A stretch of 64,000 bases of DNA from Octopus vulgaris. Lineage: Eukaryota. This document shows, piece after piece, positions 26,701 to 61,180 of this stretch. Every line of letters begins with the position of its first letter. Positions within the stretch are counted from its first letter, which is position 1. The stretch lies in assembly GCA_951406725.2 (NCBI GenBank), contig OX597816.1, positions 144,770,001 to 144,834,000 of the forward strand. Direction: 5' to 3'. Made by a program: the position numbers and the translations under genes. Below the pieces are notes generated by a model. It did no database searches. It had not been told where the DNA came from and saw nothing but the letters and a program-made list of their open reading frames with translations.

Positions 26701-29700
26701 ATTATCATCATTATTATTATCATTATTATTATTATTATTATTATTATTATTATTATTATTATTATTATTATTATTATTATTATTATTATTATTGTTATTA
26801 TTTTTGGTGGCGGCGGTGGTGGTGCTGGTGTTGGTGATGATGGTGGTTGTAACAGAATAGTTGGAAAATATATAGAAAGAGTGGATATAGCAGAATGAAT
26901 TTCTATTTAACATTCATAATATCTATTTAACTGGTCAGATAATTTTGTGACACATCAAAAGTTAAAGATTAAGTTGTCAAGAAAGTCCTTGCGGTTTTAA
27001 CCTTTAATTTCAGATGGATATATCTCGGCTGGAGCAAGATTTTTTAATCGAATAACACCATCAAAATAAGCACACTTTCATTTATGCCAGTAGCGTAAAA
27101 ATTCTGCGTTCTAGTGGCGATGAAGTCGTTAAAGGTGTGTTTAGAATCGTCTTCGCTTTTTAAGCATTTCTGACGCAGGAAGTTGTCGAGACGCTTGAAA
27201 ATGTGGTAGCCAGTAGGCGAAAGGTCTGGTGAGTATGGCAGATGAGGCAGAGTTTCGTAGCCCCATTCGTTCAACTACTGCAGTGTCAGTTGCACGACGT
27301 GCGGTCGAGCGTTGTCGTAGAGAAGAATTGGTTTTTTTTCTATTGACCAATACTGGCTGTTGTTGTTGGAGTTTCTTATGCATTTCATCCATTTGCACAC
27401 AATATTTCTCCGCCGTAATGGTTTCGCCTGGATCCAAAAAGCTGTGATGGATGAGACCGGCTGCAGACCACCATACAGTCACCATGACCTTCTTTTCGTG
27501 CAACTTTGGCTTCGGGAAGTACTGTGGAGCTTCGTCGGCGTCCAGCTACTGAGCTGAGCGTCGACGGTTGTCGTAAAGAATTCACTTTCCATCCTAAGTC
27601 ACAATCCGGTCGAGAAACGGATCGTTCTTGTTGCGTAAAAAATGGAAGATGACACTTCAAAACGGCATTTTATGTTTTGAATTGTCGTTCAATTCGTGCG
27701 GTACCCATTTCTCATGTACTTTTGTTTTTCTAGTATCTTTCAAGTGGTTGGAAATTGTCGTGTACGTTACATCTAATTCAGAAGTCAGCTCTCGAACAGT
27801 TGTGCGTGGATTGGCTTCGGCTAGGGCTCCTAGTGTATCGTTGCTAACATTGGATGGCCGACTACTACGCTTATCATCTTGAAGACTCTCGTCACCGCTA
27901 AGAAATTTCTTGAACCACTATTGTACTGTACGTTCATTAGTGGTTCCTGGGCCAAACGCATCGTTGATATCAAGAGCTTGTTCGGCAGGTTTTCGGCCTA
28001 GCTTGATGGGAATAAGAAAATTGTGCGAATTTGCTTTTTGTCCATGTTGTATTCAACGTTCCGGAAAAAACGGTCTAATTATTCAAAAAGATTAGATAGT
28101 GCGATAACCGGGCTTTAAAATGATATATAAAGTCAAAGTAATGTAATGAAAATTAATTTGAAAATAAATCATTTAAAACCAAAATTAAAAATTCCACAAG
28201 AACTTTCTTCACAACCAAATAGAAACACTCATTCACTGATAGTACAATAAATAGTCGGCGGATACTTACTTGGCACTGGTAATACTGGGACTTGAATTGA
28301 AAAGTAAAAATAAGATAATATAGTTCCTTGTCATAAATATCTGGTATTACAAATACACAAACCTAATAGAGATAATGAATGTTTTAATAATTGCATAATG
28401 AATACATGAATACGTTTCCTCAATATTCTAATAATGATTATACTGATTGTGTCGTGCGTTTCACACACGTAATTTTTGTTTAAAATGTTTTAGAAATGTT
28501 CATATACATTTTATTACTTAACATACATAGACTTGATGTTCTAAGATATATGTATTAATATAACTGTGAATGAAATTATGTATATATGTATGTGTGCAGA
28601 AACTGATAAACATGTAGAGCTATGATAATCTTCCAGTGTGATACATTGAATATAATTTCTGACATCAGAATACATATTAGAATGATTTCACGTGATTATC
28701 TGTATAATAAATTAAATAACTGAGTACATTCATATCGTTAGCCATGTGCTCTGGTCATGAAATTGGTCTCAGGAAAAATGTTAGTATGCAACAATTTTTA
28801 TGTGTATTTGTTGTTTCAAATATCGAGGATTTCCATATTTATTTAAACGATCAATAGCTATATAAGAGTGAAACATTTATTGATAACCAATTAAAATGTC
28901 TTAAAATCTGAATCTATAGTACTGAGAATCGTGTCATTCACTGCCGTCGGCCGATAAAGCAGCACACTGTTTTAAGTTTAAAAATCGAAAACATTATCAT
29001 CTTTTGAATATATTATATTAATGTAAAAATATGAATTCATTGCACTTCCTAACACGGCATCAAAGTACGTTTTAATCCCTTTTCAACACGATTAGGCATT
29101 ATTTCACTATTCAATAATTTATTACATTTTAATTATATACTAATTCAATAATACATATCTAGTCTTCCGTTACAACGTGATTCTGAAACTAAAACTGTTC
29201 TGACACTAACACTGCCTCGCAATCTCCGACATTTTCAGAACCATGGAAAATTATGAAGTCTATCCTAGTGCAATAAATTTTACAATGAGTAGTTACAAAA
29301 TTATATACATACCATTACAAGTTCTTTTAATTAATTGCTTCGCGATGGACCTAAGAGCATTAAAGTTTCTAACTGAAAACACATAATTTCGGCGTGGTGA
29401 GCTACCAATAACGTTCAATTCAGACCGTTTAATTCCTCTGCCAACACCAATAGCAAACACAATGGCGCCTGTTTTTCGTAATTTCAATGCAGCGATTTTA
29501 GTTTTTCTGCGACTGAAGGCTTTGCCATCAGTTAGAACGATAGCAATATTCGGGACACCTTTTCTATCTCCTGCTCCTCGTCTGAATGACTGTGTCCTCA
29601 AGTAGTCAAGAGCTCTATTTGTATTCGTACCTCCGTGTTTGTACTTTATTCTGCTGATTGCCCTGAGCAAACTCCTCTTGTTATAATACTTATTCATCTT

Positions 29701-59124: not shown

Positions 59125-61180
59125 TCATTTCAGGTTACACCACTCTACGTAGCTAGAAATGTAGAAATGAATTCCAACCAAGGACCACTTTAATATCTCT
59201 TTCCGGTTATCACATCCTTAATAGTCAGCTGGCTTAGTTATGGAAAGGCTGATATAGTAACTGCATTCAACTATATATGTACTTATAATAATTATACAAA
59301 ACATAGTGATTACTACCAAACCATACCACTCTATGTTGGCGGTGATATACCTTGTTCTCGGTGGCTCCTTCTGGTTATTGTTCGTACCATTTCCGTACTC
59401 TTTTCAGGCAGTATCTTTCACAAAGCATCTAGTGGATGAACCTAGCCACGTTATCGTGCCTCCTTTCGTAATACTTTTGGGCTAGCTTCATACACTCACT
59501 CAAAATTTATAAGATTGTTTCATTTTTATTGCCACACATCCTAAAAAGGGGTGATACACTACACTTATTTATTTGGAACCTGGTGTAATTGGTTCTCAGA
59601 GCTTATTCCTTGGCGCTGCATATAAATGCCTCAGTGCATCCTTTCAGATAACTTTTTCTTAGCTATCCCCAAGTGTTGGTCTGGTCTTTTCATTCAATTT
59701 CTTTGATGAATTTCCCATGCAGTGGTTTCATCTAGCAGTTGTTTACTCTTTCTTCTTCTTTCTTAAATGTTTGTAGGTACATCTTATTTTTGGTAGGTAT
59801 TATATTGTTAATTCTAACAGCGGCGAGCAAAGATTCACTTTGTTTTTTGATGTACCATCCCAGACTGTTCTTCCCGTTGACAACACAGATCTTGCATCCT
59901 CTGAGACCTCTTCCACTTCTGTTTCTAGGCACATAGAGTCTGTAAGTATTGCTTTCAGGTGTAGCTCCTTGTTAACTGTCATCACTTTTCTAGTTTTCTT
60001 GTCCATTTCCTCAAGCTCGTTATTTATCCACCTAAGAACACCTGCGCTGTATCGCATTAAGGAAACAGCCCATGTGTTCAATGCCTTGGTGTTGTTTTTT
60101 TCCATTGAATCAACCTCACATAATTAACGTGGTTCTTCTGAGCTATTTTCGCCTAAAGCTTTCTTTCATTTCACTTTCCTTGATCTTTTCATATTCTAAA
60201 ATCCCCAGATATTTATATCCATTAGTTTTAATGTCCTTGGTCTTTTCGCTGTTGGGTAGCACTATACCATCAGACGACCCTAATCTGCCTCTTTGTATTA
60301 TAAGCATATCACAATTTTTAGTCCTAAATTTCATTCTGATATCCTAACTGAATATCCGTATAGTTGAAACTAGGCCATTTATTTCACGTTCGGTCTTTTC
60401 AAAGGTCTTTACATCATCCATATATAACAGATGATTTAGTTTTCCTCCACTTTTGAATGTGTATCCCGATGTCACTTTCCGTAGTATCTGTGTGAGGGGT
60501 ATCATACAAATCACAAACAGTAACGGAGATAGACTATATCCTTGAAATATGCCTCTATTAGGTTAACCCTCACCAAAAGTACTTTCCACATGAAGTTAAC
60601 TCTGTATTCCAGTTTTTCATTGATCTCTTAATAAAATTTGATATGCTCTAGACTTTCTAAAATCCAGGATTGGGGGACCATATCATATGCTTTCTTATAA
60701 TCGATCCTCGCCTTGCCTAGATTAGCAAGACTTTTGTTGCAGTCGTTCAGTACCATTCTGTTTATCAGAAGCTGTCCCTCGGCTTTTCCTTCTGAACCCT
60801 TTCTGTTCGACTGGCAGTTTATCATTCATTTCCAGGAAGATATACACATAATTATATATTATACTTGTCATCAGCTTCCATATCAGGGGCAGGCAGGTGA
60901 TAAGCCGGCAATTATTCACTACATTGCTTTTGCTGGGATCCTTTTGGCAAAGAGCTGCTTTGCTTGTGGTCACCCACTTTGAAATTTGTATACCGTTGGT
61001 GATCATTTTATCCATTTGCGTGGCTATTCTTTGGAAATGTTTCAGCCATTATCCTTGTACCCCATCTGGTCCTGGGCATTTCCAGTTTGGAATCTTTGTT
61101 GTCTGTTCGGTTACTGTTCGATATTCTATTATTGCTGTGTTTCACTTCATATTTTTCCGACCTTGGGTCCTTCAACCATT
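59125..61180 (-). mobile_element. Older decayed R4/Dong-type LINE
   Basis: IDYKKAYDMVP, NHLLYMDD (~60420), [26 protein letters not shown]; many stops. Left boundary approximate. Confidence 0.85.

Follow-up and report, generated by a model that had tools for sequence, protein, structure and literature searches.

Tandem VWA exon modules within a single Octopus vulgaris gene for a predicted secreted matrix protein, and their probable homogenization by unequal crossing-over

A 64,000-nt stretch of the Octopus vulgaris genome (G000:C3:144,770,001-144,834,000; hereafter the window, numbered from 1 at its first base) contains a run of near-identical von Willebrand factor A (VWA) exons on the minus strand, which raises the question of whether they are modules of one gene lengthened from within, separate genes, or a product of genome assembly. 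The run is probably an array of five tandem B-VWA-A phase-1 modules in one gene encoding a predicted secreted matrix protein, likely homogenized by unequal crossing-over. As the initial annotation had described, the five VWA exons are each 567 nt in phase 1-1. They are bounded by AG and GTATGT, and their starts are separated by 7289, 7289, 7179, and 7217 nt. A 21-nt micro-exon A (AG/GTAAGT) follows all five, and a 15-nt micro-exon B (AG/GTGAGT) is found in each of the four spacers. All of these exons are multiples of three and in phase 1, making the unit frame-symmetric, so that its gain, loss, or skipping preserves the reading frame; in silico splicing of the VWA, A, and B exons encountered no stop and formed the predicted VWA-A-B-VWA junction four times. 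Self-BLAST aligned positions 26575-52213 with 33791-59502 at 97.9% identity over 25.8 kb (E 0.0), and the array is far beyond chance. The proposed co-duplication of the entire cassette holds for the introns, a mariner relic, the microsatellites, and the A exons, but the B exons number four rather than five and the last unit is partial. Schistosome-type micro-exon genes carry their coding sequence mostly in symmetric micro-exons; the micro-exons here account for 36 of the 603 coding nt per unit (567 + 21 + 15), which sets this gene apart from that class.

A protein search yielded nine matches among 1,187 candidates, the best being two O. vulgaris models and an Octopus sinensis protein with 12 isoform models. 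In this O. sinensis ortholog (XP_036357280.1; LOC118762594, "von Willebrand factor-like / zonadhesin-like"), two VWA domains are linked by exactly VPVLPVPITTVK, the junction predicted for O. vulgaris. Judged from its sequence, it opens with a hydrophobic stretch resembling a signal peptide; two VWA domains, VWD-C8, one VWA-EGF, VWD-C8, and PAN follow, with TIL recognized by a separate domain match. The VWA domains of the two orthologs are 92 to 99% identical, and the linkers and domain order are alike. When the ortholog was mapped onto 264 kb around the window, the matches extended from exon 1 at window-relative position +98,112 to a final exon at -90,476, placing the five VWA exons within one ~189-kb gene that runs from a signal-peptide exon to a PAN-containing end. 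The O. vulgaris locus is currently annotated as two separate models, CAI9720130.1 and CAI9720129.1, which are one gene. An O. bimaculoides fragment with the same N-terminus contains a basic VWA domain at 68% identity. Separately, a 2-kb element is present as an inverted pair in an upstream intron of the gene, with a further copy, 94% identical, 30 kb upstream (window-relative positions 77,860-81,850 and 108,293-110,356).

Eight of the 24 listed sequencing runs were compared with the window, all as short-read contigs. Three were classed as RNA-like (X6, X10, and X11), a status that is a guess backed by exact intron skips, and five as DNA-like (X1, X2, X3, X7, and X16). The splice between exons a and b of the first VWD was present in all three RNA-like runs. 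The VWA-A, A-B-VWA, and A-VWD joins were present in two of the three, as loose ends of contigs in X10 and, in X11, with A-B-VWA as a back-joint alongside A-VWD. Together with the O. sinensis model, these joins bear out both the spliced junction that had been proposed from the genomic sequence and the assignment of the exons to a single gene.

Divergence among the units is low and unevenly distributed. With simple repeats masked, units U1 to U4 differ from each other at 18 to 46 of ~6,015 sites (0.30 to 0.76%), and the VWA exons within the array at 0 to 6 positions per 567 nt. The VWA exons of U2, U3, and U5 are identical, as is the adjoining 870 bp, that of U4 is off by 1 nt and that of U1 by 5 to 6 nt; the five exon changes of U1 are private within the array, and two of its residues are common to the first VWA of O. 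sinensis. The partial unit U5 is ~3% diverged from U1 to U4 in its 3′ 1.6 kb (44 to 48 of ~1,595 sites), starting just before its A exon. The mariner relic, which has internal stops, is duplicated with every unit (Pfam Transposase_1, E 8e-25), and no inverted terminal repeat of at least 14 nt was found around the U1 copy; long microsatellites were also co-duplicated, with lengths specific to each unit. With 40 of 1,216 candidates scored, the only near-identical copies found in the genome were these five and the tail of a sixth VWA. Nine sites, all in the spacer, group U1 + U2 apart from U3 + U4, compared with three, elsewhere in the unit, for the other two splits; this grouping also fits an array of homogenized modules. 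The interior of the array is homogeneous and divergence is higher at both edges. Unequal crossing-over predicts a homogeneous array interior with older sequence at the edges, and the observed pattern matches that prediction; by this process the 7.2-kb units would likely expand, shrink, and homogenize. The low divergence, the edge pattern, and the alleles of run X16 described below agree with the initial view of a very recent or continually homogenized expansion. The upstream homology boundary of the array (59380-59502), and likewise of each unit, lies inside a decayed element, which we take to resemble the end of a non-long terminal repeat retrotransposon open reading frame; a similar open reading frame fragment at 61228-61641 gave no Pfam hit. 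The 0.3 to 0.8% divergence of the units is below the O. vulgaris heterozygosity of 1.22% given in PMC10700109, but the conclusion that they are younger than the average allele was dropped because local single-copy differences to X2 and X3 are only 0 to 1 per ~800 bp.

The same gene contains a second array just past the low end of the window (G000:C3:144,714,880-144,769,440), consisting of seven VWA + EGF + micro-exon units of uneven length (~6.8 to 10.7 kb) whose cores are 0.3 to 1.4% apart. In this assembly its first VWA exon carries an insertion of 1 nt, possibly through misassembly. In total, this assembly has 12 VWA exons (5 + 7) compared with 3 (2 + 1) in the O. sinensis models, where array collapse in the assembly is possible. 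VWA exons of the first- and second-array types differ at 69 of 567 nt, with identical runs of 49 and 36 nt, and nonsynonymous divergence between the arrays (dN) is 0.111 against a synonymous divergence (dS) of 0.214. In a tree of 26 VWA domains, first-array domains of both species form one clade (support 100/99) and second-array domains another, more weakly supported one (89/81). Micro-exon B has two homologs outside the first array: a 6-nt candidate exon, situated 11 kb upstream of U1 in a diverged copy at 67.6% identity (E 9e-34), and a 15-nt exon preceding the second array. A homolog of micro-exon A precedes the second VWD; the presence of A and B homologs in both halves of the gene points to an ancestral B-VWA-A module. 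An old half-gene duplication would have produced two B-VWA-(EGF)-A blocks, each followed by VWD-C8-TIL, and the first module would have undergone a single duplication before O. vulgaris and O. sinensis diverged. These two copies may then have been amplified and homogenized, leaving older sequence only at the array edges, and the second block would have been amplified and homogenized independently.

On its low-coordinate side, the array adjoins an assembly gap. Positions 14423-21841 and 21942-29368 are near-identical 7.4-kb copies flanking 100 N, with the VWD exons doubled, and the tail of the sixth VWA, at 21841, falls within this overlap. The two copies differ by seven substitutions in 6,743 masked sites (0.10%). 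The left copy agrees with O. sinensis in having PVT at the end of the last A micro-exon, where the right copy has PVP, and at positions 24994 and 28634, which both differ between the copies, every DNA-like run listed carries the letter of the left copy. The VWD-exon duplication at 14.4 to 29.4 kb is most likely an overlap across the gap. A true duplication of the VWD block was judged unlikely on account of the flanking gap, the 0.10% difference, and the left-copy letters; if it were real, all the depth ratios given below would be doubled; their controls lie in the same gene.

Copy number in other animals was gauged in each DNA-like run as the depth ratio of four cassette contigs to four or five control contigs, from the contigs listed; such depths do not measure copy number, and the controls, which come from the same gene, are noisy. 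Median ratios were 1.35 in X3, 2.21 in X2, 3.07 in X7, 3.14 in X1, and 4.62 in X16, exceeding 1 in all five runs. Among the X16 cassette alleles listed, 13 of 29 occur in no window unit and three occur only in U1. The alleles absent from the window units are on contigs at depth 132 to 235, compared with ~42 for the controls, so several copies likely share them, a signature of lineage-wise homogenization or independent re-amplification that favors ongoing homogenization over one recent burst. The depth ratios and X16 alleles give a crude indication of variable copy number and lineage-wise homogenization, and copy number likely differs between animals; the earlier suggestion of variation between individuals is to that extent indicated, by ratios (1.35 to 4.6) that do not count copies. 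X16 is labeled organism A, yet seven of its listed single-copy alleles are common with X7 (organism B) and missing from the organism A runs X2 and X3, so the species labels of the runs may be mixed.

Several observations weigh against five homogenized modules transcribed as one matrix protein. Control depths vary up to 4.4-fold within X7, the ranges of X3 and X7 include 1, and most depth ratios are closer to three than to five; with medians below four in four of the five runs, a five-unit array may be uncommon as an allele, or overcounted. Within the short-read contigs of the eight runs, neither a read nor a contig crosses the whole array, a transcript with five VWA exons was not observed, and two copies are enough for the A-B-VWA join. 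Six peptides of the protein had no match in part of one skin-mucus peptide table (PMC10138644), in which a peptide of a paralog is present. Finally, X6 lists no A-VWD joint, a different exon being joined to VWD. The X6 contig over the first VWD exon (depth 1222; joint at window position 24811) runs on into 29 letters, of which the first five correspond to the end of the second-array EGF exon and the rest to its two linker micro-exons. In this assembly these donors lie at least 29 kb downstream of the first VWD exon, giving a back-splice-like junction, and the contig of that run keeps no other entry into the exon. Circular RNA, a tandem duplication of larger extent, and a hybrid unit would each account for the junction; the VWA 3′ end lacks coverage in X6, which is not evidence by itself.

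The exact count of five is unproven, and the repeat could be real with its count inflated by the assembler, for example through two three-unit haplotypes joined end to end. The median ratios of 2.2 (X2), 3.1 (X1), and 3.1 (X7) fit approximately three copies per haploid set, the overlap artifact directly adjoins the array, and nine sites separating U1 + U2 from U3 + U4, all in the spacer, could be a haplotype split. We nevertheless regard an inflated count as unlikely: the copies flanking the gap are 0.10% apart, whereas no pair of units is closer than 0.30% overall, the would-be allelic pairs U1-U3 and U2-U4 differ by 0.6 to 1.0% in the spacer, microsatellite lengths distinguish every unit, the array contains no gap, and the X16 ratio is ~4.6. 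It is far less plausible that each VWA exon is part of a small gene of its own in a tandem row, or that the VWA exons and the downstream VWD/VWA-EGF block are different genes, as the two database models might imply and as the lack of a single RNA contig running from the first to the second array would allow. All 12 O. sinensis models span both halves in one protein, the peptide of the signal-peptide exon matches at a single place in 264 kb, which is 39 kb upstream of the array, and the RNA-like joins connect VWA to A and A to VWD; the O. vulgaris model with five VWA domains lacks the signal-peptide N-terminus and the micro-exons, and its VWA domains end early. Selectively neutral turnover is a possible, if doubtful, explanation, in which symmetric exons set in repeat-rich introns gain or lose copies without harm, most of the extra units are skipped, and valency is without biological effect. 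The in-frame exon skipping foreseen in the initial annotation has a counterpart in 3 of the 12 predicted O. sinensis isoforms, which lack the second VWA; the first exon of the second array has its 1-nt insertion, and there is little sign of purifying selection within the arrays, with five nonsynonymous and one synonymous difference between U1 and U2 and 42 versus 18 in the second array, summed over 15 non-independent pairs. Against such turnover, all but one of the 12 VWA exons have stayed intact and kept canonical splice sites, this gene has acquired arrays on two occasions and other octopod VWA genes have acquired them as well, and the X11 depth of the internal A-B-VWA joint is 1415 versus 396 for A-VWD, a poor measure but as expected with several units included. 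The array of homogenized modules in one gene remains our preferred reading.

The VWA fold is predicted with a local confidence (pLDDT) of 94.9 and has a Pfam VWA match; its top structural match is mussel PTMP1 (template modeling score 0.92, 31% identity), followed by collagen-binding integrin I domains. The metal ion-dependent adhesion site (MIDAS) is defined by the motif DxSxS...T...D, and in 23 aligned proteins D13, S15, S17, and D117 are near-invariant and T84 (the T84/T86 position) is invariant, so that, judged from their sequences, the VWA domains are intact and MIDAS-bearing. Each copy has 41 to 42 Lys + Arg against 8 to 9 Asp + Glu, with an isoelectric point (pI) of 11.2 to 11.5 and a net charge of ~+33; the paralogs tested, at pI ~9.4 to 9.5, are well below the first-array VWA. 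Collagen VI has a Gly-X-Y triple helix beside its VWA string, and no Collagen Pfam match was found in the ortholog or the O. vulgaris models; the gene is not a collagen VI. The gene does contain a VWD-C8-TIL assembly, with two VWD, two C8, and TIL, whose nearest matches are annotated as FCGBP/zonadhesin-like at 27 to 52% identity outside the gene itself. Zonadhesin is described as having MAM domains with mucin repeats and VWD (PMC1325057); no MAM match was detected in the ortholog or either O. vulgaris model. The available portion of an oviducal gland study names only a generic ZAN transcript (PMC8976471). According to PMC4754843, collagens are ligands of both PTMP1 and VWF, and VWF also binds glycosaminoglycans; with these ligands, the MIDAS, and the basic charge in view, there is an even chance that the VWA string serves as a multivalent cationic cross-linker in secreted material (matrix, mucus, or cement), where it would join collagen or polyanionic glycans. 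Avidity would scale with VWA unit number. More tentatively still, and with doubt prevailing, a polymorphic "valency dial" may recur among the secreted VWA proteins of octopods, with the two arrays of this gene turning over independently and exchanging or re-ordering modules so that animals differ in domain architecture as well as in copy number; on that view the X6 junction would stem from a duplication of larger extent, a hybrid unit, or abundant circular RNA.

The coordinates of the array and of the neighboring exons are collected in Table 1.

Table 1. Features of the window, in order of transcription (positions count from the first base of the window)
Feature	Position	Strand	Remarks
VWA exon unit 1 (U1)	58287..58853	-	567 nt, phase 1-1; 5 private changes, 4 alter amino acid
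Micro-exon A, unit 1	57243..57263	-	21 nt, VPVLPVP
Mariner transposase relic, one per unit	55972..57021 (approximate limits, unit 1 copy)	-	internal stops
Micro-exon B	52365..52379	-	15 nt, ITTVK
VWA exon unit 2 (U2)	50998..51564	-	
Micro-exon A, unit 2	49954..49974	-	
Micro-exon B	45078..45092	-	
VWA exon unit 3 (U3)	43709..44275	-	
Micro-exon A, unit 3	42665..42685	-	
Micro-exon B	37897..37911	-	
VWA exon unit 4 (U4)	36530..37096	-	
Micro-exon A, unit 4	35486..35506	-	
Micro-exon B	30681..30695	-	A-B-VWA join in RNA-like runs X10, X11
VWA exon unit 5 (U5)	29313..29879	-	VWA-A join in X10, X11
Last micro-exon A	28270..28290	-	joined to VWD exon in X10, X11
Whole tandem array	26573..59502 (~33 kb)	.	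four full 7.18-7.29 kb units and one 3.96-kb partial unit
First VWD exon a	24558..24811	-	spliced to exon b in 3/3 RNA-like runs
First VWD exon b	22057..22364	-	
Second copy of 21942-29368 and 100-N gap (21842-21941)	14423..21941	.	likely contig overlap
C8 exon region	13182..13559 (approximate)	-	
TIL exon region	10449..10643 (approximate)	-	
Cys-rich, EGF-like exon region	9460..9630 (approximate)	-	end = KRGKCV
Pro-rich micro-exon	7680..7691	-	12 nt
Micro-exon candidate	5954..5959	-	6 nt
Micro-exon, B homolog, preceding second VWA array	2733..2747	-	15 nt; second array begins ~560 bp past the first base of the window

Homogenized strings of VWA cassettes like the one in the window are also found elsewhere, in other genes or subfamilies. 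Argonauta hians GAB1600458.1 has eight VWA(-EGF) repeats, of which the seven compared are 93 to 99.5% alike. Another VWA gene contains 27 units at 1.85 kb (G000:C23:38,048,861-38,097,419), each checked unit with a 39-nt phase-1 micro-exon candidate and 1 to 11 substitutions apart in 10 neighbor pairs checked, followed by 13 units at ~3.2 kb (G000:C23:38,105,663-38,145,863); in unit number this far exceeds the array in the window. The Argonauta and C23 domains are 52% and ~39% identical, respectively, to the VWA of this gene, and because they belong to different genes or subfamilies these arrays represent independent amplifications. Our literature search, which reached few subscription papers, found no published description of this array or of the C23 and Argonauta arrays. 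As a further observation, G000:C3:89,780,001-89,810,000 contains a tandem duplication with a 17.4-kb period (~97 to 98% identical) and another VWA exon, 53% identical to the first-array VWA. The initial interpretation is supported, and the locus is less singular given the second, larger array and cassettes of the same kind elsewhere. The analysis corrects the annotation to one gene with ~12 VWA exons, now split into two truncated O. vulgaris models without micro-exons, and the recurrence of such arrays among other VWA genes of octopods suggests that copy-number variation in coding sequence forms a class that short-read cephalopod genomics would miss. If avidity does track unit number, structural variation would be linked to the properties of the secreted material.

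The mechanism of gene lengthening is already known, and this locus is a further example. Human LPA kringle IV type 2 (KIV-2) is present in 5 to 40 copies in the population (PMC12770363), and the octopus array resembles it, as described there, in that a domain unit of several exons is repeated in tandem within one gene, the copies being near-identical and hard to assemble. It differs in that the unit is a VWA exon with two linker micro-exons, two independent arrays occur in one gene, and copy variation is only indicated. In zonadhesin, according to PMC1325057, mouse has 20 copies of a two-exon partial D3 and zebrafish zan has ~5-kb, 17-exon phase-1 repeats, whose copy number differed between two sequences, leaving doubt between collapse and polymorphism. 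As in these expansions, blocks of symmetric phase-1 exons were recently duplicated in tandem and have lengthened a secreted or adhesive gene of the VWD family, but in octopus VWA rather than VWD is amplified, there is no MAM match, and the gene is not a zonadhesin ortholog. With LPA KIV-2 and zan it shares exons and introns repeated head to tail in one gene, a frame-symmetric unit, near-identity that includes the introns, and use of the unit-to-unit junction. The mussel byssal protein PTMP1 (PDB 4cnb/4cn9), characterized in PMC4754843 as a collagen-binding matrix protein, likewise has Cys-bracketed tandem VWA domains with MIDAS, but only two diverged ones, in contrast to the 12 homogenized, strongly basic VWA domains accompanied by VWD-C8-TIL and PAN in octopus. 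The gene offers a clean, testable invertebrate counterpart of LPA KIV-2, in which two arrays within one gene provide an internal comparison, the units are distinguishable, and edge effects are visible.

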